64,000 nt of DNA from an uncultured bacterium (GCA_963768165.1 CAVYHJ010000002.1:195283-259282); one strand, 5' to 3'; positions 7,259-53,478 are shown, counted from the first letter of the stretch. The notes: a model not told the origin generated them from the letters alone. Numbers and translations are program-made.

Positions 7259-7512
7259 TATTTAGATAGAGCAATGCATCCTTCACCGCATCCTTGTCAT
7301 TCTGAGCGCAGCGAAGAATCCCTGTGTTCTACTCCCATATTATAGATTCAATGCGTCGGGAATTTTAGTGTTCTTTACGGTATTCCTGATGCATCTTTTA
7401 AAAAGGTTAAATTGTGATTGACATGATTAATTTCGTATGATAACCTTACGTTTCGTGTGGTAGGCGAAAATTTGATTTTTCCACATATTAACTCTAAAGG
7501 GAGGTAGTCGTT

Positions 7513-13268: not shown

Positions 13269-13303
13269 GCGAACTAATAGCGAATATGCACCGAACCAGA
13301 AGC

Positions 13304-13346
13304 GGAGCTGGTGTGGAGGTGAAAATTTCACCTCCACACCAGCTCC
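13304..13346. other. Perfect 19-bp-stem palindrome
   Basis: GGAGCTGGTGTGGAGGTGAAAATTTCACCTCCACACCAGCTCC between convergent genes. Confidence 0.6.
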
Positions 13347-13414
13347 ACTCCATATTCGGTTCAAAAAGAGTTTTGAAACATAGACCCGACCACCTTCTGC
13401 GTCCATATCCTCCC

Positions 13415-14030: not shown

Positions 14031-14050
14031 GTCGAGTCGGGAGACTCGAC
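14031..14050. repeat. Short hairpin repeat (family R2) GTCGAGTC-GGGA-GACTCGAC
   Basis: Identical hairpin also at 21546-21565 and 22151-22170. Confidence 0.55.
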
Positions 14051-14195: not shown

Positions 14196-14894
14196 TTATT
14201 CTTTGGCTCCGGCATCTTTCAGGAGTTTTACGATGTCGTCATATTTCTTATATGTCGCTATTGATAAGGCAGTTTTACCATCATTGGTTTTCGTATTGAT
14301 ATTGGCTCCTTTATCTAGCAAGGCTTTCATGGTATCCATACGACCACCACGAACCGCCCACATCAAAGCAGTATAACCAATAACATCTTTCGCATTGACC
14401 TCCGCGCCTTTCGCTAATAAGGCTTGTACGGTCTCGTTATGTCCTACAACTGCCGCATTCATCAAGGCGGTCATACCGTACTTGTTTTTCGCATTGACCT
14501 CCGCACCTTTCGCTAATAAAGCGTTCACGATATTCGTTTGGCCCCACCATGCCGCTGACATCAAGGCGGTGTTACCAAACTTATTTTTTACATTAACATC
14601 GGCTCCTTTCGCCAATAAAGCTTGCACGGTATCTGTATGACCATTTTCTTCTGCTAACATCAAAGCGGACACACCTGTACTATCTTTCACATTCGGGTTC
14701 ATCCCCGCATCCAAATATAATTTTATAACATCGGTTTTGCTATGTCCTGCACATTTAAAAAACTCATCTTCGCTATAGGTAATCTTCATTTGCGCCAGTT
14801 CATTACGCGCTTCTTGCGGGGTTTTGGCGAAGGAAGGGAATACCAGGAACAAAAATAGTACAAGAGAGAGACACGGTAATGGTTTCAATTTCAT
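14196..14894 (-). CDS. Secreted ankyrin-repeat protein
   Basis: Signal peptide then repeated TALM.AA..GH...V..LL.KGA.VNAK units; AAGGAG RBS. Confidence 0.8.
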   Translation of the reverse strand: MKLKPLPCLSLVLFLFLVFPSFAKTPQEARNELAQMKITYSEDEFFKCAGHSKTDVIKLYLDAGMNPNVKDSTGVSALMLAEENGHTDTVQALLAKGADVNVKNKFGNTALMSAAWWGQTNIVNALLAKGAEVNAKNKYGMTALMNAAVVGHNETVQALLAKGAEVNAKDVIGYTALMWAVRGGRMDTMKALLDKGANINTKTNDGKTALSIATYKKYDDIVKLLKDAGAKE

Positions 14895-14976
14895 TATAAT
14901 TGGTACTCCTTTTTCCTCTAGAATGTATGGCGTCGGGAAAAAGAAGAGCGTTTATTCCCGACGCAGTTTTATTCTG

Positions 14977-15783
14977 TTATTCTTTCGCCCCGGCACTCTT
15001 GAGGAGTTTTACGACGTCGGGATGGTTCTCTTTTGCCGCGTCCATCAAAGCAGTATGACCTTCATTATCTTTCGCATTGACTTGAGCACCTTTTTTTAAT
15101 AAGACTTTAACGGTCTCTGCATGACCTGTGACTGCCGCAAACATCAAGGCAGTCCTGCCATTATTGATTTTCGCATTGACTTCAGCACCTTCTTTTAATA
15201 AGACTTGCACAGTCTCCGTATGACCATTCACTGCCGCTAATATCAATGCGGTCACACCACCCTTGTTTTTTGCATTGACATCCGCCCCTTTTGCTAATAA
15301 GGTTTGAACGATCTTCGTATAACCAAACTCTGCCGCAAGCATCAAGGCGTTTTTACCTTGTTTAGTTATCGCATCAACTTTTGCCCCTTTTGCTAAAAGG
15401 GCTTGCAACGTATCTGTACGACCACTAAGTGCCGCCCATGTCAATGGGGTCCAGTCATCGTTTGATTTCGCATTAATATCAGCACCTTTCGCCAATAAGG
15501 CTTGTAGAGTCTCAATATTATTATGAAATGCCGCAGCCATCAAGGGGGTTCGACCATTATCGTCTTTCAAATTCGGATTCATCCCAGCATCTAAAAACAA
15601 TCTCACAGCGTCAGTTTTGCCGTGTTGTGCACAAAAGAGAAATTCATCTTCGCTATAGGTTATTTTCATTTGCGCCAGTTCATTGCGCGCTTCTTGCGGG
15701 GTTTTGGCGAAGGAGGGGAATACCAGAAACGAAAATAGTAAAAGAGAGAGGCTTAATAATGGATTGAATTTCATCATACTTGG
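14977..15783 (-). CDS. Secreted ankyrin-repeat protein (paralog)
   Basis: Start placed at internal MMKFNPLLSL (AAGGAG RBS) rather than the ORF-track start; same N-terminal FLVFPSFAKTPQEARNELAQMKITYSEDEF as neighbour; at least six ankyrin units. Confidence 0.8.
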   Translation of the reverse strand, partial: PSMMKFNPLLSLSLLLFSFLVFPSFAKTPQEARNELAQMKITYSEDEFLFCAQHGKTDAVRLFLDAGMNPNLKDDNGRTPLMAAAFHNNIETLQALLAKGADINAKSNDDWTPLTWAALSGRTDTLQALLAKGAKVDAITKQGKNALMLAAEFGYTKIVQTLLAKGADVNAKNKGGVTALILAAVNGHTETVQVLLKEGAEVNAKINNGRTALMFAAVTGHAETVKVLLKKGAQVNAKDNEGHTALMDAAKENHPDVVKLLKSAGAKE

Positions 15784-16064
15784 TACTCCTTTTTCCCAAA
15801 GAATGAGAGAGTTTTTTATTACCGATAGCATACTCCCTTCTAGAACCCAGAGTCAAGTTAAAGAGTGGAAGGAACGGGAGAAACGGAGAATGGGCGAGAG
15901 AGCGAAATAGAATCAGGAATGAAGGAAAAGGTCAAATATGTTACCTGCTCCAGCAAAGAGATACCCATTATTTTGCCTATAAATAGACAGGTAGAAAAGA
16001 GTTGAAAAGATAACAGATTGTGCTATAATTTTTCTTAGTCAAAAACGGTCGGGAGGACACTTCG

Positions 16065-17670
16065 ATGAAAACACGTAAACGCATTATTGTTATTTCACAT
16101 TTTCTGTTAGGACTCGCTACGATGATTCTGATTTTACCCGGGAGCGGGTTCGGGAACCAATTGGTGTATTCCACGTATCTGGGCGGGACGAGCGATCATG
16201 CGGAATCATTAGGGATTGCGATTGATACGGCTGGGAATATCTATATTACCGGATTTACCAAAGCACCGAATTTTCCCGTCACAGCATCCGGCTACGATAC
16301 AGTGTATGAAGGCGCGGGAGAGCATGTGTTTGTAAGCAAAATCAATCCGAGTTTATCGGGTGTCTCGTCTTTAGTCTATTCCACTTTTCTTGGCGGAGAG
16401 GGATATGAACTTGCCCGGGGCATTGCGGTGGATAGCGCGGGGAATATCTATGTAACCGGCTTTACCAACTCCTCTACCTTTCCAGTAACCGCGAATGCCT
16501 ACGATACAGGATTACATGGCGCGGAGTACGCGGCTTATCTCAGCGAAATCAATCCGAGTTTATCGGGTGCTTCTTCGTTGGTGTATTCCACGTATCTGGG
16601 TTCGGGTTACGCGGGAGGCTATGGCATTGCCCTTGGTAAATCCGGCAATGCCTATATTACCGGCTCTCAAAGCTATTACACGTTCCCGGTAACTGCCAAT
16701 GCCGTGGATACTGTGGGTACCGGCAATGATGTCGCTTTTATCTCTGAATTTAATACCAGTTTATCGGGTGTCTCCTCCCTGGTCTATTCGACTTTGCTGG
16801 GACCCAAGGACACTTTCGCCGCATATGCCAATGCCATCGCCGTAGATACTTCAGGGAAAATTTACGTAACCGGATTGACGGACTCGTCCACCTTACTTAC
16901 CACAACCAATGCGTTTAATACGACTTTTCATGGGTTACAGGACACGTTTGTGAGTGTGATAAATCCTAATGTGGCGGGATTGGCGGGGTTGGTGTATTCG
17001 ACCCTGCTGGGAGGAAGCCCCGCTAATTACGAGGATTCCGGCAATGGAATTACGGTAGACAAAGCGGGTATTGCCTATGTCACCGGTGTAACAGAAGACA
17101 CAATCTTCCCGGTGACCGCCATTGCCTATGACACCGTATTCAAAGGAAACGGAAATGTATTCCTGTGCAAAATCAATCCGTCCTTATCGGGGGTCTCGTC
17201 TCTGGTCTATTCGACATTATTAGGCGGCAGTGGGGGCGAGGGAGGGGAAGCCATTGCCATTGATACTGCCGAGAAAGTCTATGTGACAGGGTACACATTT
17301 CCCGGTCACGGCAGACGGGTATGATACGACATTCAACGGAACTCAGGATGTTTTTGTGACTGTATTGAATCCCAACTCATTGGGAACCTCCGCTTTGATT
17401 TATTCGACCTTTCTGGGAGGCAATAGCTATAGCGATGGACAGGGAATTGCTCAAGACAATAATAACAAAGTGTATGTCACAGGATATACCTATGCATCGA
17501 ATTTCCCCATCACCTCCAATGCTGTCAGCACTTCTTTACGAGGGACTGCAGGCAGTAACTATGATGCCTTTGCCACGGTGCTGAATATCACTCCTCCGGT
17601 AGCGGTCAATGATTGGATGCTGTATGCAGAGCCGGAAGTGGCGCAAGGGAGTGAGTCGGGAAAGAGGTAA
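16065..17670 (+). pseudogene. SBBP (beta-propeller) repeat protein disrupted by frameshift/deletion
   Basis: Repeating LVYSTYLGG...IYVTGFT...FPVTA.AYDT units; frame 0 stops at 17324 (VTGYTFPGHGRRV*) while the repeat continues in frame +1 from 17299 (FPVTADGYDTTFNG...). Confidence 0.55.
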
Positions 17671-17700
17671 AAAGCGGTTTGTTATCGAGGGAATAGTATC

Positions 17701-18039
17701 TTACTTTTTATCTGCTTCAATTAATGAATTTGTGTTTATCGACTCGAAAGCAAAAATGATTTTAAAAAGTATTATATAAAGAATAAGCATGAGAAAAATA
17801 ATCGGTAGCCTCTGATCAAAATAGGTTAGGTGATACGCACCGCATAAAGACATAGTGATAATATAAAGAGTAAACGATATTAATCCATTTATCAAACCGT
17901 ACATGAACCTTTTTTTTGCCATAAATCCTTTATGACATTTAGGGCATTTCAAGGTATAGTTGTACAAAGAGAAAAGCACATTCCCAAAAGTTATTACGTG
18001 TCCACATGCTGGACAGGGTCTGGAAAATTTCATGAACAA
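17701..18039 (-). CDS. Zinc-ribbon (CPxCG...CPKCHK) membrane protein
   Basis: N-terminal MKFSRPCPACGH..CPKCHK then two TM segments; paralog at 21703..22083. Confidence 0.45.
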   Translation of the reverse strand: MFMKFSRPCPACGHVITFGNVLFSLYNYTLKCPKCHKGFMAKKRFMYGLINGLISFTLYIITMSLCGAYHLTYFDQRLPIIFLMLILYIILFKIIFAFESINTNSLIEADKK

Positions 18040-18562
18040 TCAATCTTTCTCACTGAATTGTCTTTATTATAACATATAGGTAGGTTATTTTGATTTAAAC
18101 GAATAGTTCCGAATAGCCAGAGAACTTACACTGATAAAAGATTCCAGCAGGTTTTTTTAACTATATCGGAAATGAGTATATTTCTCTTTCCCGATAAAGA
18201 GAAATTGCCATACATTGCGGTTAATAACAGTCAGTTTTCCCTTAATTAAAAACGGTTTTTAAGAATCAGAATTTATTTTTCTGTGACAAATCATTTAACA
18301 AAATACTGAAACGAGTCATGGTTGACAAAGAAAAATACTTACTATATATTGTAGTCCTGGCTAGGATTAATTAGTAACTGTTGAAAATCCTGTTTCTATA
18401 GATGAACCAATTAAAACTTGTGTATGCTCATGCAATACTTTTTCTCCAAAAGAAAAAAGTAAACCATTTATTTCATTGGAGATAAGTATTTGCCATTTGG
18501 TAAATATTATTCTATTATCATTAGTATATACCTAGGATTTATATGGTTTGTCTATAGCTTAA

Positions 18563-20090
18563 ATGCCAACATTTCTAGCAAGGAATATTCCGGTAAGTAC
18601 AAAATATAAAAATCACTTAGAAAAGGACCATAATATATTTATTCCGTTGTTGTTCTTTGTGATTTATTGTTTCAGTTTTATATTTCACGATCCAATCACA
18701 CACATTTATTATGGGTATTGGCAATTATTACCTTTGGATGCTTTACTTCAACATCCCATTAGTAGTTTACTCCTGATTCACTCACAACCTCCCCTGCTTA
18801 ATCTACTGTTTTATATCGTACATATTCCATCCATGATATGGGAAATCAATCCTCAATTCACCGCAACGCTTTTATTTTTCTTTATCTCCCTATTCTCGAT
18901 ATATGTCTATTACAACCTGGTTTTTCTTATCACAAAAAATAAAGTATGTGGCATGGCCGTTCTTTCCCTCATTCTACTCAATCCCGGTTTCTCCTTTTTT
19001 CAGGGGTATTTCTTTTATCAGAATATGGACTTTTTAGTCAGTGGTATCCTGGTCTATCAAGCCTGTCTGTGGGCACTAAAACCGGATTTATACCGATTTG
19101 GAGGCGTGGTCATAGTGTATACTACAATGGTTTATTTACGGAGTTTATGGCATCCTCTTTTCGGATTTTTTATCGTTCTCTTTTTACCCCTAATGATTTA
19201 TCCAAAAATGAATAAAAAAATAATCCAAAAGCATTGGATCTATGGCAGTCTCCTTTTTATTTTATTAATCAGTCCTTGGATGTTAAAAAACCTTATTTTG
19301 TTTAACACCCCTTCTTTTTCTTCCTGGCTGGGTGGAAACCTTGGTGGTCAACGATTTTCGAAATTCATTCTTTCCAATAATCCAGCCGATGCTTTTGATA
19401 ACTCTTTGGTTAAACAATATTATTCCGACTGGCAATTAAAGATTTTAATGAATTATCCTGCTACTGCAGACATCGAAAAAAATTTAATTTCTGCCCCCCC
19501 CCTACATGAAGAGAAATTTAAATCACTACGCCCTTCCTGCAATCTGTAATGAGGATATGAAAGAGCGAATATCCTATTATAGAGAACACCCCTACCAATA
19601 TATACAGAGAATCTATTCAAATTTTGTCTACATGGATCTTCCCCCATATATTAATTCGTATACACAGGATTCAACAACAGGTTGGTATGGCGGTTTGCAA
19701 CGGATGGGAACTTATGGATATTGGTATGATGTCATATTTTATGGAAGTTGGTTTAGAAATTTTATAGTCATACATACCCTGGATTTTGTATACAGACCCA
19801 GCCTGTTTATCTTCATACTGATCCTGCTGTTATTACTCAGCATTCGGTTGGCAATCAATCAAAAGACAGAACCTATCCAGAGAATATTTTATTTCTTGTC
19901 ATCGTTAATGTTTCTCTGGTTTCTTGCCATGATTTTACTGATCGATGGAAAGGAAAGTAACCGAATGAGATGGGATATGGAAGGGATCTATCTATCAATC
20001 CTGGTTGAACGATGTTACGCCCTCTATCAATCTTTGAGGATACATAAACCGAATAATAAAAAACGGGTCCAAGTCAAACGCAGTAAATAA
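18563..20090 (+). pseudogene. Polytopic membrane protein split by frameshift at a 9-C homopolymer
   Basis: ORFs 18563..19549 and 19506..20090 overlap in different frames at the C9 tract 19494-19502; removing one C fuses them (...ISAPPYMKRNLNHY...). Confidence 0.5.
19494..19502. repeat. Poly-C homopolymer tract (9 nt)
   Basis: CCCCCCCCC at the junction of the two overlapping ORFs. Confidence 0.9.
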
Positions 20091-20205
20091 CAACATTTAT
20101 TTATTCAACTAACCTATACATGAATGTTAATCAAGTTAATGGTAGACATGAGGTTGTGATTCGCTGGTGAGATGTATCGGGAATGACACACACAAGAATA
20201 AAAGG

Positions 20206-20262
20206 TTACTTGGCTTTGGCGGAGTGGTTGTAGATAGCCAGGGAGATGACGCTGAGAAAGGG
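20206..20262 (-). pseudogene. 3'-terminal remnant of a kdpD-like gene
   Basis: Minus strand encodes DPFLSVISLAIYNHSAKAK*, matching the C-terminus of the KdpD-like gene at 23023 (FLSVISLAIYNYSAKTK*); no open upstream frame. Confidence 0.4.
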
Positions 20263-20307
20263 GTCGGAAAATACGCCAAGAGCGCTCCTTCTCGACGCAT
20301 AATTCAA

Positions 20308-20418
20308 GTAGTAACGAGAGATTCTTCACTTCGTAAAAAACACTACGCTCAGAATGGCAGATAGGGGGACGATGGGAAGAAGGCGTCGGGAAAGAGATAA
20401 AAGGCGGGTTGTTATCGA
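20308..20418. repeat. Composite repeat (R3+R4), copy 1
   Basis: GAGATTCTTCACTTCGTAAAAAACACTACGCTCAGAATGGCA ... GTCGGGAAAGAGATAAAAGGCGGGTTGTTATCGA; related copies at 21586-21695, 22951-23002, 17661-17695 and inverted at 7294-7333. Confidence 0.55.
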
Positions 20419-20426
20419 GTCACAGT

Positions 20427-20906
20427 TCAGGATTTCTTGATTAATTTGAAATCCAGTACAGAAAGGAAATAGATGAATGAAGCATAGACTAGAATTACAA
20501 CACACGTCAAAATATATTCCCTTTGCTCCGGTAAATTTTTTATCACTCGCACATCTTTATTCGCCGAAATCAGACTGAATAATTTCGCTATTTGCAAAAA
20601 TAATAATACCGATAGCATAGAAAGCGTCAGAGTTTTAGCCCCAGGTCTTTTGCGTAAGATTCCAATACAACCAATAATTAAACACAGGGTTAAACCAAAT
20701 TCTAGAACGACTCCAATAATTGTTACTCGCAAAAACTGCGCATTACTTACGCCCGCAAACCCAAAAATTAAATAGACCAACGCAAAGCCCATTATTAACA
20801 GAAAACATACTCCCAAAGTGAGTAGAAGTATAACCCAAGGACGATAATGCTTGTTAACAAAAGATTTCATCTTTTTCTTCCCACGACGTAATCTTATATC
20901 TAACAA
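20427..20906 (-). CDS. Hypothetical polytopic membrane protein
   Basis: 159 aa with four hydrophobic segments. Confidence 0.4.
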   Translation of the reverse strand: MLDIRLRRGKKKMKSFVNKHYRPWVILLLTLGVCFLLIMGFALVYLIFGFAGVSNAQFLRVTIIGVVLEFGLTLCLIIGCIGILRKRPGAKTLTLSMLSVLLFLQIAKLFSLISANKDVRVIKNLPEQREYILTCVVILVYASFIYFLSVLDFKLIKKS

Positions 20907-21039
20907 GTTTCGTTGTCAATCACCTCCAAATTATAGAGGCGAAGTTTACCCTGCGCCTACGGTTTAGTTGAGAAAAAACGCGAGAAGGCGTCGGGAAAGG
21001 CTTGAAAAGTGAGACGTTCCCGACTCAGGAGAAATACGT

Positions 21040-21261
21040 TTACAGAAGTTTAAGGAATTCTTCCACGGTTAAACCGGAATTGCGGATGAGCGCTCGCAGA
21101 GTCCCTACTGAAAGTTCCTTGTGCTGGGGAATCGAGAGATTGACCCGGATTCCGGGTTTGACGAGAACCAGATGACTACCGACCTGACCCATGACCTGCC
21201 ACCCGGCTTTTTGAAAAGCCTTGGCGGCTTCCCTCCCAGAAATATTGGCCAGTCTCCCCAT
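21040..21261 (-). CDS. hicA: Type II toxin-antitoxin system HicA-family toxin
   Basis: 73 aa; SGREAAKAFQKAGWQ...GSH...GTLRALIRNSGL matches the HicA pattern. Confidence 0.7.
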   Translation of the reverse strand: MGRLANISGREAAKAFQKAGWQVMGQVGSHLVLVKPGIRVNLSIPQHKELSVGTLRALIRNSGLTVEEFLKLL

Positions 21262-21265
21262 TGGA

Positions 21266-21481
21266 TCAAACAGCGACTACAACCGGAGAGTGACCTTTGG
21301 CGGGTTTGCGTTTTCGCAGGGCTTTTTGGTCTTCCGCCCATAGCCAAGCGGTGATGGCTTCTTTTACATTTTCCAAGGCTTCTTTTTCGTCTTTACCTTG
21401 GGAAACGCAACCGGGGAGTGCGGGAACCTCCGCGACAATCCACCCGTCTTCCGCTTTCTCTAATAAAACGTGAAACATCAT
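21266..21481 (-). CDS. hicB: Type II toxin-antitoxin system HicB-family antitoxin (UPF0150-like)
   Basis: 71 aa; MMFHVLLEKAEDGWIVAEVPALPGCVSQGKDEKEALENVKEAI matches the small HicB pattern; 4-nt gap to hicA. Confidence 0.7.
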   Translation of the reverse strand: MMFHVLLEKAEDGWIVAEVPALPGCVSQGKDEKEALENVKEAITAWLWAEDQKALRKRKPAKGHSPVVVAV

Positions 21482-21585
21482 AATCGTTTGTCCTTTATTT
21501 TTTCCTCAATGACTCTAATATACCATAGAAATAGTTTCAAAGGCAGTCGAGTCGGGAGACTCGATCTAAAAAAGATTTACTTCAG

Positions 21586-21695
21586 GTAGAACACAGGGAT
21601 TCTTCGCTCCGTAAAAAGCACTACGCTCAGAATGACAAATTTGGAGGCGGTGGGGATTGAGTCGGGGAAGAGATAAGAAACGGGTTGTTGCTGAT
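21586..21695. repeat. Composite repeat (R3+R4), copy 2
   Basis: GGTAGAACACAGGGATTCTTCGCTCCGTAAAAAGCACTACGCTCAGAATGACA...GTCGGGGAAGAGATAAGAAACGGGTTGTTG. Confidence 0.55.
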
Positions 21696-21702
21696 TAGGA
21701 TT

Positions 21703-22083
21703 TTATTCTTTTGGGTTATCCTTGAACAGGTTATATAACAAGGGGTAAGCTGGTTTCCATTTTGTTTCTATTAATGTAACGTTGTCAAAGATGAATAAAG
21801 TTAAGATGAATCTGTAAACTATCTCAAAAACAAGTATAATTGGAATTAATAAAATAATGACCTCAAGCGGGTTTAGAATATTCACAAATTGCAATGTAAA
21901 TAAAACAATTAATATAATGACTAGACTTATTGCTTCTACTATTATAATCCCTTTACGCCAAGCTTGCGCCCAGTAGACTTTATGACATTTTGGGCATTGC
22001 AAATGATATCTATATAGTGTGGGAAGCATTTCCCAATTAGAAACACTATGTCCACATGCCGGACAGGGTCTGGAAAATTTCAT
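21703..22083 (-). CDS. Zinc-ribbon membrane protein (paralog of 17701..18039)
   Basis: MKFSRPCPACGH...CPKCHK followed by two TM segments. Confidence 0.45.
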   Translation of the reverse strand: MKFSRPCPACGHSVSNWEMLPTLYRYHLQCPKCHKVYWAQAWRKGIIIVEAISLVIILIVLFTLQFVNILNPLEVIILLIPIILVFEIVYRFILTLFIFDNVTLIETKWKPAYPLLYNLFKDNPKE

Positions 22084-22326
22084 ATCAAATTCCTTTTCAT
22101 TTCCAAACGCAGATTATAGCATTAGTGGAGGGCGGCGGGAATAGTAAAGTGTCGAGTCGGGAGACTCGACCTATCGGATAGAGGAATGGTCAAAACCAAT
22201 TTCTTACGAATATCATAAGTCGTATTGATTTAAACAAAAAGTAAGCGTAATATAATGGGGTTCAGACCATGGAAATTATCATTCACCCACGATATGATAC
22301 CGGGGATTTATTCAGGAGGGCAGGTC

Positions 22327-22956
22327 ATGAAACGCTTGATTTGTTTGTTAACAATCACTCTTAGTATAGGTTTTGTAACGCAATTATGTTGGGGTTACTC
22401 CTCATCGGAATTGATAATTCCGCCATCCGCCAGAGTACCCGGGTCTGTATCCAGCCAAGATACTTCCGCAAATACGCCCCCAATACGAAACTATGTTAGC
22501 GAACTTCCATCTTCTTTTAAAAAGGATGCCAATGAAATTTATAATTTTTCCGTTAAAAGTCTGGAAGGTAAATATACCCACATGGGGGACTATAAAGGGA
22601 AAGTCATCGTGGTCAATTTCTGGGAATCCACCTGTTATCCAAGTTATCTGGAATTGTTCAAAATCGAAAGCTTGGCTAATTTTGACAAGAGAAAAGAAGT
22701 GGTCATTATATGTGTCGCCGAGGATGACGAGAAACTCCTACTTCATTATAAGGACAAAATCCCCCAGCTTTCATTCCCCATCTTTACTTATAACCAGTTT
22801 GATATACCGGATGCGCTGGAACATGAATATGTCCCCACCACGTTTATCATCAACCAGAACGGTAAAATTATACTGGCAGAATCCGGTATCATTGAAGGTT
22901 TCCAACTATGGGAAGAAATCCAAAAACTCCTTCCCCACAAACCAAACACCAAGTAA
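22327..22956 (+). CDS. Thioredoxin-fold (TlpA/redoxin-like) protein with single-Cys site
   Basis: Start set at MKRLICLL (AGGAGGG RBS); VVNFWESTCYPS aligns with the WxxWCxxC redoxin site but the second Cys is Ser. Confidence 0.5.
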   Translation: MKRLICLLTITLSIGFVTQLCWGYSSSELIIPPSARVPGSVSSQDTSANTPPIRNYVSELPSSFKKDANEIYNFSVKSLEGKYTHMGDYKGKVIVVNFWESTCYPSYLELFKIESLANFDKRKEVVIICVAEDDEKLLLHYKDKIPQLSFPIFTYNQFDIPDALEHEYVPTTFIINQNGKIILAESGIIEGFQLWEEIQKLLPHKPNTK

Positions 22957-23022
22957 CGAGAGATTCTTCGCTCCGTAAAGAGCACTACGCTCAGAATGAC
23001 AATTTTGGGGGTGGTGGGGATG

Positions 23023-25002
23023 CTATTTGGTTTTGGCGGAGTAGTTGTAGATAGCCAGCGAGATGACGCTGAGGAAGGATTCGAGGAGATAGTCCTGTTC
23101 TTGCGAGAGGAACTGAGAATCCTGCGGACGACCGATAGCGAGGACGCCGACAATATCGTTTTTGACGTTCAAGGGGATAAAGCGCCACGCGGAAGAGGAG
23201 AGAGTCTGGGTCTCCCGACCGGCAAGTTCCTTGTGCTCAAATACCCATAAAGCGATAGTCATTTCGTGACTATTAAATTTCACAGAGTCACCGGTTTGGG
23301 AGCGGATAGTGAGTTTACCGGTTTTGTCGGGAAGCAGGAGCGCCGAGTCACAGGCGAACATTTCGGAAATGTCCGAACTGATTCTATCGAGCAAATCAAT
23401 AAACCCGATAGCGTGATACAAATCCTGGCTGAATTCATTGAGCAACGAAATGTACCGCACCTGGGTGCGGGAAGATTCCGATTGCCGTTTGAGACGGTCG
23501 GCAAGGAGACTTGTCACAATGCCGACTAAAAACATGACAAAGAACGTGGGCAGATAACTCATATCGCTGACTGTAAAAGTGAAAATCGGCGGAACAAAAA
23601 AGAAATCGAAACAAAGCACGCTCAACAGGGATGCGACCAGACCGCCGATGAGTCCGCGATAAATCCCTGACAGAATCACGGGAATGATGAATAAAAGGGC
23701 AACATTCGTGAGACCGATGTAAGAATGAAGAGGAAAGCAAATGAGAGTGGTTGCGCCCACGATGGCAAGGCTCATAAGATAGGAACGCCAATCAAGAACG
23801 AGATTGCTTCGTCGCTGCGCTCCTCGCAATGACAAAGGTTGTGGTGACGATTCGCCACCGACTACCAAGACTTGAATAGGATTGCTTTTATCAATAATCT
23901 GGTTCAAGAGTGACCCGCGTATCATTCTACGAAACCGGGATTGGCCGGAGAAACCAACAATAATCAACGAGGCATTTTTTGAACGGGCAAACCGCACGAC
24001 TTCATCGGCAGGCTGGTTGCTGGAAAGACGGACAATTTTCCCGCCCAATTCTTTGGCGAGATTAAAATTCTTCTCCAACTGTTTAGCCCTTTGCGGGTCG
24101 AGCGTAGTTTGCACCTGTGGTTCGACATAGACCGCAAACCAATCGGCTTTTAAATCTTCCGCCAACCGATGTGCCACGCGGACGGGTTGTTCGGACAAGG
24201 GACTCGGACTGATACATACCATAATCCGGGTGCCGACGGGCCAGGGACCTTTAATGCCCTGCAATTGCATGTAAGAGAGCATGGCATCGTCCACGTGCTT
24301 GGCGGTATAGCGCAGGGCTAATTCGCGGAGCGCGAGCAAAGTGCCTTCTTTAAAATAATTCTGGGAGGCGAGTTTCGCCATATTGGCCATGTAGACTTTA
24401 CCTTCGGTTAAGCGCTGGAGAAGTTCTTCCACGGGAAGGTCTACGAGAGCAATTTTATCCGCCAGTTCCAGAATGCGGTCGGGGACGGTTTCCTTCACTT
24501 CAATTTTGGTAATTTGATAAATAATGTCATTGACACTTTCAATATGCTGGATGTTCAAGGTGGTGTAGACACTGATACCGTTATTGAGGAGTTCTTCAAT
24601 ATCTTGAAACCGTTTTACATGGCGTGACCCGGGGACATTGGTATGCGCCAATTCATCCACCAGAACATATTTGGGTTTGCGCTTAAGAATATAGTCCAGG
24701 TTAAACTCATCCAAGACCATACCCTGATATTCTATTTTCAGGAGGGGAGAACGTTCCAATCCAAAAATCAACTGTTCGGTTTCGGCACGACCATGGGTTT
24801 CGACAATGCCGATAATGATATCTTCGCCCTTTTGTTTGATCGCCTGGGCTTCCTGCAACATGCGGTAGGTCTTGCCGACACCGGCCACGTACCCTAAGAA
24901 TATTTTAAGAAATCCCCGGGTGCGATGCTGCTGTTCCTGTTCTTTATTAAACAGGTTCAGCAGTTGATCCGGATCGGGGCGATTTTGATTCTGTTCAACC
25001 AT
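23023..25002 (-). CDS. kdpD: KdpD sensor protein lacking histidine-kinase domains
   Basis: N-terminal P-loop GVGKTY, USP-like region, 4-TM block and GAF-like C-terminus; ends at 659 aa with no H-box or HATPase motifs; directly downstream of kdpC. Confidence 0.75.
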   Translation of the reverse strand: MVEQNQNRPDPDQLLNLFNKEQEQQHRTRGFLKIFLGYVAGVGKTYRMLQEAQAIKQKGEDIIIGIVETHGRAETEQLIFGLERSPLLKIEYQGMVLDEFNLDYILKRKPKYVLVDELAHTNVPGSRHVKRFQDIEELLNNGISVYTTLNIQHIESVNDIIYQITKIEVKETVPDRILELADKIALVDLPVEELLQRLTEGKVYMANMAKLASQNYFKEGTLLALRELALRYTAKHVDDAMLSYMQLQGIKGPWPVGTRIMVCISPSPLSEQPVRVAHRLAEDLKADWFAVYVEPQVQTTLDPQRAKQLEKNFNLAKELGGKIVRLSSNQPADEVVRFARSKNASLIIVGFSGQSRFRRMIRGSLLNQIIDKSNPIQVLVVGGESSPQPLSLRGAQRRSNLVLDWRSYLMSLAIVGATTLICFPLHSYIGLTNVALLFIIPVILSGIYRGLIGGLVASLLSVLCFDFFFVPPIFTFTVSDMSYLPTFFVMFLVGIVTSLLADRLKRQSESSRTQVRYISLLNEFSQDLYHAIGFIDLLDRISSDISEMFACDSALLLPDKTGKLTIRSQTGDSVKFNSHEMTIALWVFEHKELAGRETQTLSSSAWRFIPLNVKNDIVGVLAIGRPQDSQFLSQEQDYLLESFLSVISLAIYNYSAKTK

Positions 25003-25012: not shown

Positions 25013-25579
25013 TTATTTTTTAAGGACATCCAGTGCCATATTCAATTTTAATACATTGACAACCGGATCGCCGAACAACCCCAAGAGAGGTTTTTCGGTA
25101 TATTTTTGAACCAAATCAGTTACGACATCATCCTGCAAACTGCGAGATTTTGCAACTCTTGGCACTTGAAGCAAGGCGGCATCCAGACTTATATGGGGAT
25201 CGAGACCGCTGGCCGAGGATGTGACCAAGTCCACGGGAACAGGCGCATCGGGTGGCAAATTATTTTCCGCACGAACCGCGCGTGCCGTGGAATCAATCTG
25301 GCTAATCAATTTCTGGTTGGTGGGACCGAAATTGGTCGCATTGGAATTGGTGGCATCGAAATTAGCCGCCGAGGGACGCCCGTGGAAATATTCGGGTTTG
25401 GTGAAGGATTGTTCTATTAATTCGGAACCAACAACCTTGTTGTTCACTGTCGCCAGACTGCCATTGGCCTTGTGTGGGAAAAGTATCTGTGCGATTCCGG
25501 TCATTGCCAACGGGTATATCAACCCGGTGAGAATGGTGAATACGATTAAACTCAAGATGGAAATTTTTAACTGTTTCAT
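25013..25579 (-). CDS. kdpC: K+-transporting ATPase subunit KdpC (operon 1)
   Basis: 188 aa, N-terminal TM, conserved GRPSAANFD and SGLDPHIS segments. Confidence 0.85.
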   Translation of the reverse strand: MKQLKISILSLIVFTILTGLIYPLAMTGIAQILFPHKANGSLATVNNKVVGSELIEQSFTKPEYFHGRPSAANFDATNSNATNFGPTNQKLISQIDSTARAVRAENNLPPDAPVPVDLVTSSASGLDPHISLDAALLQVPRVAKSRSLQDDVVTDLVQKYTEKPLLGLFGDPVVNVLKLNMALDVLKK

Positions 25580-25596
25580 TTGTATAATCTCCTTTT

Positions 25597-25686
25597 TTAA
25601 TAACTTCTACCCGACTTTAGTCGAGGGTTCGGGGACTTCAGTCCCAATTTAAGGGCTAAAGCCCTAAGAACCGTGGACTAAAGTCC
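25597..25686. repeat. Interspersed double-hairpin palindromic repeat (family R1), copy 3
   Basis: CTTCTACCCGACTTTAGTCGAGGG..GGACTTCAGTCC..GGGCTAAAGCCC..GGACTAAAGTCCCGTAGAAGAA between kdpC and kdpB. Confidence 0.6.
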
Positions 25687-25702
25687 CGTAGAAGAAAATA
25701 TG

Positions 25703-27739
25703 TTATGCCCAACCTAATACAACGATGAGCATGTCAATTAGTTTGATACCGATGAAGGGAAGAAGCACTCCGCCCAACCCATATACCAGTAAATTCATTT
25801 TCAAGAACGAGGAAACGGAAACGGCACGTAATTTGACGCCCCTCAATGCCAACGGGATTAAGAACAAAATAATAATCGCGTTGAAAATGACGGCGGACAA
25901 AATCGCACTCCCAGGATTATTTAACCTCATCACATTCAGAATATTCAACTGCGGATAAGCGACCGCAAACATTGCCGGAACGATGGCGAAATATTTCGAG
26001 ACATCGTTGGCAATACTAAAAGTAGTAAGCGCGCCACGCGTGATAAGGATTTGTTTTCCGACTTCCACAATATCGAGAAGTTTCGTGGGATTGGAATCCA
26101 AATCAATCATATTGGATGCTTCCCGCGCCACCTGCGTGCCTGCATTCATAGCGACCGCGACATCGGCTTGCGCGAGAGCGGGTGCGTCATTAGTCCCGTC
26201 TCCAATCATCGCGACAAGGTTACCGTCCTCTTGTGCCTTGCGAATTAATGCCAATTTGGTTTCGGGTTTGGCCTGAGCAACGAAATCATCCAGCCCGGCT
26301 TCCGCGGCAATCGAAGCAGCGGTGAGCGGGTTATCGCCGGTAATCATGGTGGATTTGATACCCATTTCACGGAGTTGCGCGAGACGAGCTTTAATGCCTT
26401 GTTTCAGAACGTCTTTGAGACGAATCACGCCAAGAACTCTTTTCCCGTCAGAAACGACCAAAGGCGTATTACCTTGTTTGGCGAACCCTTCCACGATGTC
26501 CTTGACTCCGGCAGGGATTGTGGCATTGGACTGTTTCAGAAATTCTTCAATCGCGTCCAAGGAACCCTTGCGGATTTTTTTGCCATCAATATCAATCCCG
26601 CTCATGCGTGTTTCGGGAGTGAAAGGTACGAACACGGCACCTTCGGGAGCACGGATATCGCTTCCCTTGATACCTTTTTCGGTTTTACAGAGGGTTACAA
26701 TACTTCTGCCTTCGGGAGTTTCATCGGATAGTGAGGATAACAAGGCACAGTCCACCAATTCTGCTTTTTCAACTCCAGCAGAAGGAACCAAATCGGTTGC
26801 CATACGATTGCCGAGAGTGATGGTACCCGTCTTATCGAGCAAGACGATATTGACATCGCCTGCCGCTTCTACCGCACGACCGCTCAGAGCGATGACGTTG
26901 TGTTGTAATAGTCTATCCATCCCTGCGATACCGATAGCGGGAAGTAAACCGCCAATGGTGGTCGGCATGAGGCATACCAAGAGAGAAATCAATATCGGGA
27001 CGGTGGTCGCGATACCCAAATAATTGGCATAGGTGGGCAGGACGATAACGACGATTAGGAACAACACTGTGATGCCGACAAGGAGAATTTCTAAAGCGAT
27101 TTCATTGGGTGTCTTTTGACGTTTCGCGCCTTCGACCATAGAAATCATGCTATCGAGGAATGTCTCACCGGCATTCGCCGTGATACGGATTTTGATATGT
27201 CCCGATAATAGTTTGGTTCCACCAGTCACGCCACTGCGGTCACCACCGGATTCCCGAATCACGGGAGCGGATTCACCAGTGATGGCAGATTCGTCCACAA
27301 GAGCGACGCCTTCGATAATTTCTCCATCACCGGGAATGACTTCCCCTTCAATAACCAGAATCAAATCGCCTTTGCGAAGATCCAAGGCGGATACTTTTTC
27401 TTTCGCTCCACTTTCCAATATTTTAAGAGCAAAGAGTTCGCTGCGTGCTTTCCGCAAAGATTCCGCACGTGCTTTCCCTTGAATTTCCGCCAAGGCTTCC
27501 GAGAAGGTGGCGAAAAGAACGGTCACCCAGAGCCAAAGGGTAATTTGCAAATTAAACCCGAAACTGGCATGATGGGTGATATTGATTACCGTGATGATAG
27601 TGGTAATCACAGCGCCGATTTCAACGACCAACATTACGAGATTGCGCCATAATAAAAAGGGATTTAATTTTTTAATAGCTTCCTGCAATCCCTTGAACAG
27701 AAAGTCCGCTTGAAATATACTTCGTTTCGTTTGTGCCAT
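25703..27739 (-). CDS. kdpB: K+-transporting P-type ATPase subunit KdpB (operon 1)
   Basis: P-type motifs [21 protein letters not shown]; 678 aa. Confidence 0.95.
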
Positions 27740-27806
27740 ATATTATCTCCTTAGAACCACCACCCCCTTCCCCCTCCTTAATTAAGGAGGGGGACTGAGG
27801 GAGTGA

Positions 27807-29507
27807 TTAAAATGTTTTTCCTTGCAACATGAATAAATGTTCCAACACGGGACCGAGGGTGAATGCCGGGAAATAGGTCAATGCGCCGACAATAAAGACT
27901 ACGCAAACCAGCATAGCGACAAATAACCAGCCGGTGGTTGGAAATGTAGCCAAACTGGTAGGAACAATCTTTTTCCTGACCAGTGCTCCGGCAATAGCCA
28001 GTCCTGGAATGAGGGTGGAAAATCGTCCAACCAACATGGTGGCGCCACCGGTTAAATTATAAAACACGGTATTGGCGTTAAGTCCGGCAAACGCGGAACC
28101 GTTATTCCCACCATAGGATAAAAAGGCATATAACACTTCCGACCAACCGTGGGCGGAGGGATTATTCATGCTGGACAATCCGGTGGCGGTAATCATAGCG
28201 AATGCCGCAAAGATTTTAAGAACAATGGGCGCTGCCAAAATTGCAATCACCGTCCAAATCATTTCATAAGGACCAAGTTTCTTGCCAAGATATTCAGGGG
28301 TACGTCCGATCATCAATCCAGCAATAAACATAGTGGCGAAGACATAGAAAAACATTCCGATGAGTCCGACACCCAATCCGCCGAAGATGACTTCCCCAGT
28401 GCATAAGTTAAACATATAGACTAGACCCGTGAGGGGGAGCATACTGTCGTGCATAGAGTTCACGGAGCCGTTGGAAGTGACGGTGGTCATGTGTCCCCAT
28501 GCAGCAGAATTGATAATCCCAAAACGGGCTTCTTTGCCTTCCATATTCCCCCCAACCAGATGCAACTTATCGAAAAAGGGGTTACCCTGGGTTTCGCTAT
28601 AGAATACTACGGCCAAACCTATAATAAATAGGGTTAACATGGAATAAAAGATGGCTTTGCCTTGACGGCTATCGCGTACCATAAAACCAAACATGAACAC
28701 TTGCGCGGTGGAAATGAAGAGAATTGCCATCATTTCAAAAATATTAGACAAGCCAGTGGCATTCTCAAAGGGATGCGCGGAGTTGACGTTGAAGAAACCG
28801 CCGCCATTAGTTCCCAACTGTTTAATGGCAATCTGTGAAGCTGCAGGACCAACGGCAATGGTTTGCGCACCGCCTTCCAATGTCTTTACTACCTCATACG
28901 GATGTAAGGTTTGAACGACACCTTGAGACACCAAAATGAGGGTAAGGATAATGCTCAATGGCAATAATATATATATTACAGAACGGGTCATATCCACCCA
29001 GTAATTGCCTATCTTGTCGGTATCTTTGCGAATAAATCCGCGAATCATGGCGACCATGACTGCCATCCCCATCGCGGGGGTAACGAAATTATGTACCGTG
29101 AGTCCCAGCATTTGGGTGAGATAACTCAGGGTACTTTCCCCGCCATACGCCTGCCAGTTGGTATTGGTGACAAAAGAGATGGCGGTATTTAATGCCAAAT
29201 CCCAACGGACGGCAGCGAATTTTTGCGGATTCAAAGGCAGATGCCCTTGAAGAAGCTGCAATAAAAATAAAGCGGCGAGAAATATTACATTGAACCAGAA
29301 TACCGCCCAGGCATAAGTTTTCCAGTTCATTTCTTCGGATTCATTGACGCCGCAGAGACGGTATATTCCACGCTCAAGAGGTTTTAAGAACCCGCTGAGA
29401 AATGTCCATTCTCCGTTATACACCCGGAACATATATTTCCCTGTCGGGATGGACAGGAAAAACATGATTGCCAAGGCAACAACAACTACAATCATATCTA
29501 TTAACAT
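27807..29507 (-). CDS. kdpA: K+-transporting ATPase subunit KdpA (operon 1)
   Basis: 566-aa polytopic protein with KdpA-typical GTNGGGFF selectivity-filter-like motifs. Confidence 0.9.
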   Translation of the reverse strand: MLIDMIVVVVALAIMFFLSIPTGKYMFRVYNGEWTFLSGFLKPLERGIYRLCGVNESEEMNWKTYAWAVFWFNVIFLAALFLLQLLQGHLPLNPQKFAAVRWDLALNTAISFVTNTNWQAYGGESTLSYLTQMLGLTVHNFVTPAMGMAVMVAMIRGFIRKDTDKIGNYWVDMTRSVIYILLPLSIILTLILVSQGVVQTLHPYEVVKTLEGGAQTIAVGPAASQIAIKQLGTNGGGFFNVNSAHPFENATGLSNIFEMMAILFISTAQVFMFGFMVRDSRQGKAIFYSMLTLFIIGLAVVFYSETQGNPFFDKLHLVGGNMEGKEARFGIINSAAWGHMTTVTSNGSVNSMHDSMLPLTGLVYMFNLCTGEVIFGGLGVGLIGMFFYVFATMFIAGLMIGRTPEYLGKKLGPYEMIWTVIAILAAPIVLKIFAAFAMITATGLSSMNNPSAHGWSEVLYAFLSYGGNNGSAFAGLNANTVFYNLTGGATMLVGRFSTLIPGLAIAGALVRKKIVPTSLATFPTTGWLFVAMLVCVVFIVGALTYFPAFTLGPVLEHLFMLQGKTF

Positions 29508-30140: not shown

Positions 30141-30716
30141 TTATTTGGCAGAAGATTGAACTTGATCCAATGCGATATTTAACTTCAAGACATTGACGCC
30201 CGGATCACCAAGGAAGCCCAAAGTTCGAGAATCGGTATTTTTCTGGATCAGATCTTGTACCGTTGCCTCATCCATTTTTCGAGCTTTAGCAACCCTTGGA
30301 ACTTGAAATAAGGCAGCCTCCAGGCTTATATGGGGATCCAAACCACTGGCGGACCCTGTGACCAAGTCTACTGGCACTAGTGCATCTGCGGGCAGGTTAT
30401 TTTCCTGTCGAATAACATTCGCAGTAGAATCAATTTGACTAATAAGTTTTTGGTTGGTGGGTCCCAAGTTAGACCCGGTGGAATTCCCACCATCAAAATT
30501 CGCCGGAGATGGCCGCCCATGAAAATACTCCGGTTTGGTAAAAGATTGTTCGATTAATTCAGAACCAACCGTTTTCCCATTCACCTGTATTAGACTGCCA
30601 TTGGCTTTATATGGGAATAAAACCTGACAGATGCCTGTCATCATCAAGGGATAAAATAACCCTGTTAAGATTGAAAAAACTACAAAGGTTGTGATCGATC
30701 TTGTTAAATCTTTCAT
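30141..30716 (-). CDS. kdpC: K+-transporting ATPase subunit KdpC (operon 2)
   Basis: 191 aa, paralog of 25013..25579. Confidence 0.85.
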   Translation of the reverse strand: MKDLTRSITTFVVFSILTGLFYPLMMTGICQVLFPYKANGSLIQVNGKTVGSELIEQSFTKPEYFHGRPSPANFDGGNSTGSNLGPTNQKLISQIDSTANVIRQENNLPADALVPVDLVTGSASGLDPHISLEAALFQVPRVAKARKMDEATVQDLIQKNTDSRTLGFLGDPGVNVLKLNIALDQVQSSAK

Positions 30717-30729
30717 TTTTAGGACCTCC

Positions 30730-32793
30730 TTAAGCCCAACCTAAAGATACAATGAGCATGTCTATGAGTTTAATACCGATAAATGGTAATATCACACCAC
30801 CCAACCCATAAATTAACAAGTTTCTCTTCAAGAAAGCAGAAACTGTAGTGAGTCGTAACTTGACCCCTTTCAATGCCAAAGGAACCAAACAAAGAATGAT
30901 AATGGCATTGAAGATAACAGCAGACAAAATCGCACTGTATGGGTTTGACAACCCCATCACGTTTAATATATTCAACTGTGGATAGGTAATTGCAAACATA
31001 GCCGGTATGATGGCGAAATACTTGGATACATCATTGGCTATGCTGAACGTGGTTAAAGCTCCACGGGTAATGAGAATTTGTTTACCCACTTCAACGATAT
31101 CCAATAGTTTGGTGGGATTGGAATCCAAATCCACCATATTGGAGGCTTCCCGTGCCACTTGAGTTCCGGCATTCATTGCTACCGCTACATCGGCTTGAGC
31201 CAGGGCAGGAGCATCATTGGTCCCATCCCCAATCATAGCGACCAAGTTCCCATCGGACTGATATTTGCGTATCAACTGTAATTTGGTTTCCGGTTTGGCT
31301 TGCGCTACAAAATCATCCAATCCAGCTTCTGCGGCAATAGACGAAGCAGTTAATGGATTGTCACCGGTAATCATAATCGACTTAATCCCCATCTCTCGTA
31401 GTTGTGCCAACCTGGCTTTGATACCTTGCTTTAATACATCTTTTAACCGGATGACCCCTATGATCTTTTTGCTATTTGCTACAACCAAAGGAGTATCGCC
31501 TTGTTTCGCAAATTCTTCGACTTTGTTTCTCACATCACTAGGGATACTGAAATGAGATGGGCGTATAAATTCTTCGATGGCATCAAGCGCTCCTTTTCGA
31601 ATCATTTTTCCATCAATATCTATTCCACTCATCCTGGATTCAGGTGTAAAAGGAACAAAAACCGCACCTTCGGGAGCCCGGATATCACTTCCTCTAATCC
31701 CTTTTTCAGTTTTACACAATGTTACTATGCTTCTTCCTTCCGGTGTTTCATCTGAAAGTGAAGATAATAAAGCGCATTCGGTCATTTCTTTTTTATCTAT
31801 CCCTGCCGCCGGGATCAATTCAGTCGCCATGCGGTTTCCTAGGGTGATCGTCCCGGTCTTATCCAACAGAACCACATTGACATCACCGGAAGCTTCTACG
31901 GCACGACCGCTAAGGGCGATCACATTGTGTTGCAATAATCTATCCATGCCAGCAATACCAATAGCCGGAAGTAATCCTCCGATCGTGGTGGGCATTAAGC
32001 AAACCAATAAGGAGATTAAGATTGGAATGGTAGTAACGATTCCCATATAACTGGCATAAGCGGGAAGGGTTACGACGACAATCACGAACAATACGGTTAT
32101 ACCAATCAGCATGATCTCCAAAGCGATTTCGCCGGGTGTTTTTTGCCGTTTCGCACTTTCCACCATTTTAATCATGCCATCCAGAAATGTTTCTCCAGGA
32201 TTGGCAGTAATTTTGATTTTGACTTTTCCAGAGATTAATTTTGTTCCTCCGGTTACCCCACTCCGGTCTCCTCCAGATTCTCGAATAACCGGAGCTGATT
32301 CTCCTGTTATGGCCGATTCATCGATTAAGGCAACACCTTCAACTATTTCACCATCTCCAGGAATTACATCTCCATCAGCGACTAAAATTATGTCGCCTTT
32401 GCGAAGAGACAGGGCAGATACAGTCTCTATGCTACCATTGTCCAACAATTTTTGGGCAGACAATTCGCTTCTGGCACGGCGTAAAGATTCAGCACGAGCT
32501 TTTCCCTGAATTTCAGCCAAGGCTTCCGAAAAGGTTGAGAAAATAACAGTAAACCACAACCAGAGGGAAATCTGTAAATTAAAGGAGAAACTGGTGTGAT
32601 GGGCAATACTGACGATGGTTACTACAGTAGTAACCATCGCGCCGATCTCCACAACCAGCATGACAATATTTCTCCATAGTGTAAAAGGATTTAATTTTAT
32701 TATGGATTCTTTCAATCCTTGTAACAAGAAATCCGCTTGAAATAGGTTTTGTTTTTTTTGTGTCATATGCAATCTCCTTATGCGTTGGGTCAT
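30730..32793 (-). CDS. kdpB: K+-transporting P-type ATPase subunit KdpB (operon 2)
   Basis: [17 protein letters not shown]; paralog of 25703..27739. Confidence 0.95.
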
Positions 32794-32811
32794 GACATCG
32801 TCATGACTCTA

Positions 32812-50637: not shown

Positions 50638-50860
50638 GATTACATACTCCTAATAAATTAAATAGTTCAATATGTCTACATTAGATAATAGGATAATAAA
50701 AATATATTTGCAATATGATAAATCTTTTCCAATATAAGACGTGGCGGAAATAGTGGAAGAGTGGGCAAGAGAATTAATAAAAAAGAGGATATTCTGAAAT
50801 GAACAACCCTATGTACTTATTATAAATTTCTAGTAAAATTTCCCTTGATTATTACCCCGA

Positions 50861-53287: not shown

Positions 53288-53394
53288 CGGAAGGACTATC
53301 CTTTCAAATAAATAATTTATGATACGTTAAATTTACCTCAATCGGTGAGGTCATGTCAATGGATCTTAACCAATAAAAACGCGATAGAAATAGT

Positions 53395-53437
53395 GGAAGA
53401 ATAAATAAAAAAAGGAGTGTTCTGACATGAACACCCC
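53395..53437 (-). terminator. Intrinsic terminator after GH44-like gene copy 3
   Basis: Hairpin GGAGTGTTC-TGACAT-GAACACCCC followed by U-run on the minus-strand transcript. Confidence 0.5.
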
Positions 53438-53478
53438 TATATACTCATTATTATAAAATTCTAGTAGAATGTCTCTAG

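Follow-up and report, generated by a model that had tools for sequence, protein, structure and literature searches.

In a window of 64,000 nucleotides (nt) of DNA from an uncultured bacterium (GCA_963768165.1, CAVYHJ010000002.1:195283-259282; positions are counted from its first letter), the kinase-less kdpD gene and the gene of a beta-propeller protein (SBBP) are separated by an islet (17.65-23.02 kb) that carries a hicBA toxin-antitoxin (TA) pair and two paralogous genes, called here z1 and z2, for small membrane proteins with a zinc ribbon. This islet is probably a patchwork, in which a unit containing a z gene was duplicated in tandem and then received insertions, hicBA having landed between two old z copies. 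As judged from its sequence, hicBA is a canonical, self-contained type II TA pair. Nothing found in the sequences links the z proteins to the TA system or to defence, and the idea that z1 and z2 form part of the TA system is not supported.

Gene-end relics and the growth of the islet

In the window, 5.3 kb lie between the two anchors of the islet, the stop of kdpD at 23023 and that of SBBP at 17670, and all the elements that a first-pass annotation of this DNA had described there are present (Table 1). The minus strand carries, between 17.7 and 22.1 kb, five open reading frames (ORFs), namely z2, hicB, hicA, an ORFan for a polytopic protein (the four-TM ORF, for its transmembrane (TM) segments) and z1, and the plus strand carries a split membrane gene (18563-19549 and 19506-20090) and a thioredoxin-fold gene (22255-22956). 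The earlier description of hicBA as flanked by the zinc-ribbon paralogs is a loose one: z2 is located 221 nt upstream of hicB, and on the other side the distance from hicA to z1 is 3.0 kb and includes two further gene units.

The single close comparator of this locus is L012, a 2.8-kb contig from a different species, in which one z gene (P0003) has as its left neighbour the 3' part of a kdpD gene (whose protein is 90% identical to the KdpD of the window and ends at the same residue) and as its right neighbour a convergent SBBP gene (protein 68-72% identical to that of the window). About 0.55 kb separates the kdpD stop from the SBBP stop in this contig, an interval composed of a B-X element, a promoter, one z gene and an element A (the lettered repeats are described below). 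Neither hicBA nor any other gene of the islet is present in it, suggesting that hicBA, the four-TM ORF, the split membrane gene, the thioredoxin-like gene and the second z are either lineage-specific additions or were lost in the lineage of L012. P0003 is the closest relative of z1, its positional counterpart, which keeps the ancestral C-terminus and the native junction with SBBP; z2 keeps the ancestral promoter region, its upstream segment and 5' end being 73% identical to those of the z gene of L012.

The repeats of the locus, several of which had been noticed in the first-pass annotation, are real and far beyond chance (none of 100 shuffled sequences matched them), and two of them are relics of the ends of the anchoring genes. 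Repeat A, natively the last codons of SBBP together with the convergent 3' flank of z1, is found directly behind the stop codon of z1, of z2 and of the four-TM ORF and, in a degenerate form, behind hicA. Repeat C covers the final ~20 codons of kdpD (in the native copy, DYLLESFLSVISLAIYNYSAKTK followed by the stop) and has left two relics within the islet. Repeat B natively follows the kdpD stop and is joined to A at two places, the junctions being located inside a TCCCCACCGCC-like stretch that is shared, since it occurs within the SBBP end as well as behind the stop of kdpD. Relics joined in this way, at a shared microhomology, are the footprint expected when the z unit is duplicated in tandem. 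Identity amounts to 77% between the two junction copies and to 75% between the 5' ends of z1 and z2, a similar divergence that fits one old duplication event. The kdpD-end relics indicate that at least one more duplication had its endpoint within kdpD.

According to this reading, z would be the resident gene of the locus, and the ancestral unit would have been composed of the sequence downstream of kdpD, a hairpin similar to repetitive extragenic palindromic (REP) elements, a promoter, z and its 3' flank into the end of SBBP (that is, B-X-promoter-z-A). This unit was probably duplicated in tandem at least twice, by unequal recombination at the ~12-nt microhomology, and its copies would then have been remodelled by the insertion of foreign or ORFan genes: the thioredoxin-like gene, the four-TM ORFan, the frameshifted membrane gene and the hicBA cassette.

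Several points weigh against this account. The join between hairpin X and a kdpD relic at ~20260 needs at least one extra rearrangement beyond the simple tandem model. With one comparator the direction of the change is not fixed, and both an expansion here and a collapse of the array in the lineage of L012 are possible; the copy numbers of repeats A, B and X, in addition, cover the window only. z1 and P0003 are only 45% identical, compared with 90% for KdpD, which is not what simple orthology with purifying selection predicts, and this divergence could stem from diversifying selection or from a weakly constrained TM hairpin. Lastly, structure searches with z matched nothing beyond zinc ribbons and helical hairpins of a generic kind, which makes a guess of any function assigned to the resident gene.

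Hairpin X and related elements are also found outside the islet. Copies resembling B and X together are located at 7297-7392, and one of X without B at 6131-6171. The window contains 13 occurrences of the core GMGTCGGGR, often as an inverted pair, where 1.0 would be expected, and both the X-type palindromes and the short hairpin fold stably (z-scores of -3.7 to -5.7). REP-like palindromes of the form GCGTCGGGAA-N15-19-TTCCCGACGC make up a family with copies at 6131-6171, 7353-7392, 14929-14965 and 20984-21033, the first of these inside an alcohol dehydrogenase ORF supported by Pfam (5764-6828), an odd place for an extragenic element. An Rfam scan of 13-26 kb gave chance-level matches only and left the REP-like elements unmatched, and pattern scans of the JGI metagenomes gave 0 matches for the repeats. 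In a low-GC ORFan stretch (12.1-13.9 kb), a near-perfect hairpin of ~85 nt (13283-13367) gave sub-threshold Rfam matches to microRNA-precursor models.

The zinc-ribbon membrane proteins

The two small proteins are true paralogs, as the first-pass annotation had proposed: they share 46% identity over their first 61 residues (E=1e-18), and each contains two cysteine pairs, C7-x2-C10 and C30-x2-C33 (CPxC-19-CxxC), followed by two hydrophobic helices. No third copy was found in the 64 kb by tblastn. A word-indexed search of 5.8 billion proteins matched the two paralogs only, whereas a HMMER profile built from both sequences recovered, among 1.84 billion cluster representatives, 18 proteins at E<=1e-3, mostly of 105-130 amino acids (aa), which are sub-threshold relatives of the TIGR04104 family. 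In the alignment, M1, C7, P8, C10, C30 and C33 are invariant, and an I-N-K/T-x-S/T-L motif recurs at the C-terminus, after the second helix; the version of z1, INTNSLxExDKK, is common to P0003. TIGR04104 ('cxxc_20_cxxc', putative zinc finger) is the best NCBIfam family for 13 of 15 members, and one distant match is named 'CXXC-20-CXXC protein' by JGI; weak matches to TIGR02098 were also obtained for 5 of the 15 relatives. z2 reaches 31.1 bits (E=2.3e-7, model positions 3-90 of 93) and z1 23.8 bits, below the cut-off of 45, so both are treated here as a sub-threshold sister group and not as members. A literature search on TIGR04104 and CXXC-20-CXXC returned no paper from the searchable library. 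In agreement with the earlier statement that these proteins have no assigned function, none has been assigned to them by experiment. A scan of reference genomes with the z profile gave only two loci, both of them C-terminal ribbons of helix-turn-helix (HTH) proteins with TM segments, which have another architecture and are not relatives. Elsewhere in the window, the neighbour of a LemA family gene codes for a protein of 379 aa with Zn_Ribbon_1 at its N-terminus (61292-63040, minus strand), whose sequence is unrelated to z1 and z2.

The AlphaFold2 (AF2) model of z consists of a four-strand ribbon and two long helices, with a mean predicted local distance difference test score (pLDDT) of 78. The loop predicted between the helices has ~5-10 residues and, judging by the distribution of charges, both termini would be cytoplasmic, which argues against z being an extracytoplasmic sensor. 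The N-terminal zinc ribbon would then be exposed to the cytoplasm and tethered by a membrane helical hairpin, and the short conserved C-terminal strand would return to the cytoplasmic face. The best guess, and a tentative one, is that z is a membrane-tethered zinc-ribbon adaptor that could mediate protein interactions at the cytoplasmic face, rather than a sensor of external signals.

It is unlikely, though less so than the other alternatives considered, that z1 and z2 are small membrane proteins that evolve fast under diversifying selection (with a role, for instance, in immunity, exclusion or a toxin-like activity), whose copies were kept because they are different. The low identity between z1 and its positional counterpart in L012, next to a well conserved KdpD, would fit such a history, as would the concentration of the divergence in the TM region, with the zinc ribbon and the C-terminal motif retained, and the tandem amplification within a variable islet. 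However, no homolog is found in a context of phage, defence or secretion genes, TM segments often drift fast under weak constraint, and the sample consists of three sequences.

That z could be an accessory component of Kdp potassium uptake or sensing is suggested by its position, since in L012 it follows kdpD on the same strand, 181 nt away, and z2 is the first minus-strand gene past kdpD in the window. This is improbable, because a relative with 64% identity in KdpD has an amino-acid permease gene directly after kdpD and no z, z homologs elsewhere are not beside kdp genes, and z is set apart from kdpD by a REP-like element as well as by a separate TATAAT box. The contigs of another relative, with 66% identity in KdpD, stop at the kdpD gene. 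The permease beside kdpD in contig L017 was also considered as an ortholog of a permease of the window, and the two are not orthologous. The kdpD gene of the window (23023-25002, minus strand) codes for a kinase-less protein of ~655 aa with KdpD-N, Usp, DUF4118 and GAF domains and no HisKA or HATPase, whose closest named homologs are from methanogenic archaea, and two complete kdpABC sets are arranged in tandem downstream of it (25013-29507 and 30141-34560, both on the minus strand). Truncation of kdpD by an insertion was rejected, as the kinase-less form of ~655 aa dominates among thousands of homologs and L012 has the same end.

Just as improbable as the Kdp connection is a broader proposal with two variants. 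In one of them, z would be a rapidly diversifying amplified family whose variable TM hairpins target something at the membrane or protect against it, for instance in exclusion or immunity, and the kdpD-SBBP interval would be a hotspot that gathers z together with a stabilising hicBA; in the other, the A-B junctions would be the sites of a recombination system encoded elsewhere.

The hicBA pair and its relation to the z genes

The hicBA call of the first-pass annotation is correct, both genes scoring above the Pfam thresholds. hicB ends 4 nt ahead of the start of hicA on the same strand, a two-gene operon arrangement. HicA matches PF07927 with 53.7 bits (cut-off 27) over model positions 1-58 of 58, and its G-S-H motif (Gly28-Ser29-His30) is aligned with the GSH of the solved toxins 9svk_A and 4p78_C (HicA3). 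The matches of HicB are marginal for both of its Pfam families (PF15919, 30.2 bits with a cut-off of 27, and PF21748, 29.8 bits with a cut-off of 27.3), although phrog_497 ('HicB-like') is matched with E=3e-12; among structures it resembles only, and weakly, the short UPF0150-type protein TTHA1756 (PDB 2yzt). The catalytic role of the histidine is known from published work on other HicA proteins. By analogy with the family, HicA would be a ribosome-independent (translation-independent) mRNA endonuclease with its catalytic histidine in the G-S-H motif, and the short HicB would bind HicA directly and block it. No ribbon-helix-helix (RHH) or HTH DNA-binding domain was detected in the 71 residues of HicB at E<0.1, so that any autoregulation would need another route; in this family the DNA-binding domain is optional, and a short subtype that lacks it has already been recognised (PMC2701414).

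The GC content of hicBA is 0.51, that of z1 and z2 is 0.32 and that of the window is 0.42, a difference suggesting that hicBA and the z genes were acquired separately. There is, in addition, a separate promoter-like site (21540-21512) between z2 and hicB, and hairpin or REP-like elements border hicBA on both sides. Taken together, these features of the sequence suggest that hicBA is a horizontally acquired cassette that would be transcribed independently. Its role in this place is probably selfish maintenance, stabilising the islet.

The first-pass annotation had put forward the idea that the zinc-ribbon proteins could be membrane sensors or effectors of an accessory module, and on this reading z1, z2 and hicBA would be one such module, in which the z proteins sense or execute the TA response. 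The location of z2, hicB, hicA, the four-TM ORF and z1 on the minus strand within 4.4 kb, each unit trailed by the same repeat, is in favour of it. Against it, L012 carries z without hicBA, and the neighbourhoods of z homologs in five other lineages are heterogeneous and contain no toxin, antitoxin or defence gene: in one lineage (P0019 and P0011) there is a PAS histidine kinase gene upstream and an ABC-2 transporter gene downstream, P0010 adjoins a GDSL lipase gene, P0022 comes after genes of a mannose-type phosphotransferase system (PTS), and P0004 overlaps by 4 nt a rhomboid protease gene that is followed by HSP20 and DnaJ. The eight island proteins compared with PADLOC-DB gave no match at E<0.01, the GC contents of hicBA and z differ, and a hairpin, an A-B relic junction and the promoter-like site already mentioned are interposed between z2 and hicB, the short loop between the z helices being a further point against a sensor. 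HicA and HicB, moreover, form a strictly unique pair that is not combined with other TA partners (PMC2701414). Such a module is therefore highly improbable. As a finding that would speak against its idea, the annotation had named zinc-ribbon proteins that are widespread housekeeping genes unconnected with TA or defence; the lack of a connection agrees with these neighbourhoods, but z is rare and not a widespread housekeeping gene. The context of P0004 (L013, 10001-10378 and 10375-11193; also in L014 and L015) is the only one among the homologs in which an operon partner is suggested.

Chromosomal integron arrays typically contain TA cassettes, and the least credible alternative is an integron-like array of site-specific cassettes, each ending in an A or A-B site and with hicBA as a stabilising cassette: four minus-strand units are indeed trailed at once by repeat A, two of them with a composite A-B element of ~115 nt, but A and A-B fold no better than shuffled sequences on either strand (z-scores of +0.2 to +1.1 as DNA, A alone having been folded also as RNA), no RYYYAAC or GTTRRRY core is present on either strand of any junction, B and X have copies elsewhere in the window as REP-like elements, and no recombinase or integrase family was matched among the ORFs of the 64-kb window scanned with Pfam. 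A reading of the repeats A and B as attC sites is contradicted by their folding, by the missing cores and by the identity of A (SBBP end plus flank) and C (kdpD end) as gene-end relics. The sole mobility gene found in the window codes for a DDE (IS4-type) transposase (56015-57274).

Accompanying genes and known systems

The patchwork also contains genes of other kinds. The four-TM ORF agrees with the earlier description, as the ORF at 20427-20906 shows five hydropathy peaks that overlap, which would fit 4-5 hydrophobic segments; it has no family match in Pfam, NCBIfam, PHROG or PADLOC, and comparison with the z profile ruled it out as a z relative. The two ORFs of the split membrane gene overlap in different frames, and the frame switches exactly at a tract of nine cytosines (C9, 19494-19502), where one C gained or lost would turn both into a single polytopic protein of ~510 aa. 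This tract supports the frameshift that had been annotated, whereas the former existence of a single gene is unproven, since no homolog is available (neither ORF has a family match in Pfam, NCBIfam or PHROG). The site could belong to a contingency gene subject to phase variation, could mark a fixed pseudogene or could result from an assembly error; the same C9 is present in the Logan contig L001 (sample ERR11523654), which possibly derives from the same reads as the window. A hydrophobic ORF piece in another frame (LPFGKYYSIIISIYLGFIWFVYSL.., 18490-18610) overlaps the start of the 328-aa ORF and may mark another frameshift of this decaying gene. An AF2 model of this ORF, obtained without an alignment, had a mean pLDDT of 51.6, too poor for use.

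The thioredoxin-like protein scores 43.4 bits with AhpC-TSA and 37.6 bits with Redoxin, is ResA-like (E=2e-18) and has an N-terminal hydrophobic anchor (residues 24-46); a CxxS sequence (WESTCYPS) replaces the usual CxxC active site. The SBBP gene is split in the window into ORFs of 419 aa (16065-17324) and 104 aa (17356-17670), both on the plus strand, and is one continuous ORF in L012. A search for tRNA genes near the islet found none. Further away, two adjacent genes for ankyrin-repeat proteins (14196-15831, minus strand) contain tandem DNA units of 99 nt (15034-15429) and have a REP-like palindrome between them, and three consecutive paralogs of GH44 glycoside hydrolases are followed by the DDE transposase gene (48952-57274, minus strand).

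Table 1. Features of the islet, with positions in the window
Feature	Position	Strand	Details
z1, 110 aa	17701-18033 (ORF to 18039; likely ATG at 18033)	-	paralogy; TIGR04104 23.8 bits
z2, 126 aa	21703-22083	-	CPxC-19-CxxC ribbon and two TM helices
hicA toxin, 73 aa	21040-21261	-	PF07927; alignment with 9svk_A/4p78_C; phrog_353 'toxin'
hicB antitoxin, 71 aa	21266-21481	-	HicB/UPF0150 core only; PF15919, PF21748, phrog_497
ORFan polytopic membrane protein	20427-20870 (ORF to 20906)	-	147 aa from ATG at 20870
Split membrane-protein gene	18563-20090	+	two overlapping ORFs (328 aa, 194 aa); frames switch at C9 tract
TlpA/ResA-like thioredoxin-fold protein	22255-22956	+	divergent from z2
Repeat A, native	17647-17692		SBBP last codons (..SESGKR and stop) and convergent z1 3' flank
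Repeat A, copy	21654-21698		directly after z2 stop; SBBP-end relic IESGKR and stop
Repeat A, copy	20378-20422		directly after four-TM stop; SBBP-end relic ASGKR and stop
Repeat B, native	22952-23021		immediately 3' of kdpD stop; convergent stop of thioredoxin-like gene at its edge
Repeat B, copy	21568-21657		joined to A at ~12-nt microhomology
Repeat B, copy	20300-20378		joined to A; 77% identity over 114 nt to A-B junction 21578-21689
Repeat C, relic	20202-20266	-	last ~19 kdpD codons, DPFLSVISLAIYNHSAKAK and stop; 91% identical to 23024-23078
Repeat C, degenerate relic	18079-18150	-	NLLESFISVSSLAIRNYSFKSK and stop, by translation; just upstream of z1
REP-like palindrome	20984-21033		GAGTCGGGAA..TTCCCGACGC; just past hicA stop
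REP-like hairpin X	20260-20299		dispersed: also 6131-6171, 7353-7392
Short perfect hairpin	21546-21568		GTCGAGTC-GGGA-GACTCGA; between z2 and hicB; fold z-score -4.6
Short perfect hairpin, same	22151-22173		upstream of z2; third copy 14031-14049

The locus adds one chromosomal hicBA pair of the short-HicB subtype, which matters little beyond annotation. z1 and z2 define a small sister group of uncharacterised TIGR04104 proteins, for which a usable alignment and a model of moderate confidence are now available. The islet is also a worked example of how relics of the ends of neighbouring genes expose a tandem duplication at a microhomology and can mimic 'cassette' repeats, a caution for scans that read repeats beside TA genes as defence or integron-like modules.

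With the TIGR04104 proteins, z1 and z2 share a size of ~100-125 aa and two N-terminal CxxC motifs followed by two hydrophobic helices, and they differ from them in the spacing between the cysteine pairs (19 instead of 20), in scores under the family cut-off and in the additional conserved C-terminal I-N-K/T-x-S/T-L motif. Proteins of the MJ0042/ZitP type (ZitP finger, PDB 2NB9) also have an N-terminal cytoplasmic four-cysteine ribbon followed by a membrane anchor, but the ZitP finger was a weak structural match (rank 9, Foldseek E=2.5, not significant), and z is far shorter and has no DUF3426-like periplasmic domain, so that the likeness is architectural only. The palindromes of the islet are like REP elements in being short, GC-rich, dispersed and stably folding and in being placed just after stop codons, although they match no described REP family in sequence (Rfam, JGI metagenomes); the search for a REP-associated tyrosine transposase (RAYT) covered the window only. 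Repeats A and C, as gene-end relics, are unlike REPs.

Finally, hicBA can be compared with other type II HicAB/HicBA systems, such as HicAB of E. coli, HicA3-HicB3 of Yersinia pestis (PDB 4P78) and HicBA of Streptococcus pneumoniae (PMC6159526), with which it shares the two-gene operon, the small size of both proteins and a variable, apparently horizontally acquired context. HicA resembles the solved HicA toxins in its supra-threshold Pfam domain and its aligned G-S-H motif, and HicB has the UPF0150 core, degenerate and RNase-H-like, of known HicB proteins, although it differs from many of them in having 71 aa and neither an RHH nor an Xre-HTH domain. The antitoxin gene comes first here, as in S. 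pneumoniae and unlike in E. coli.

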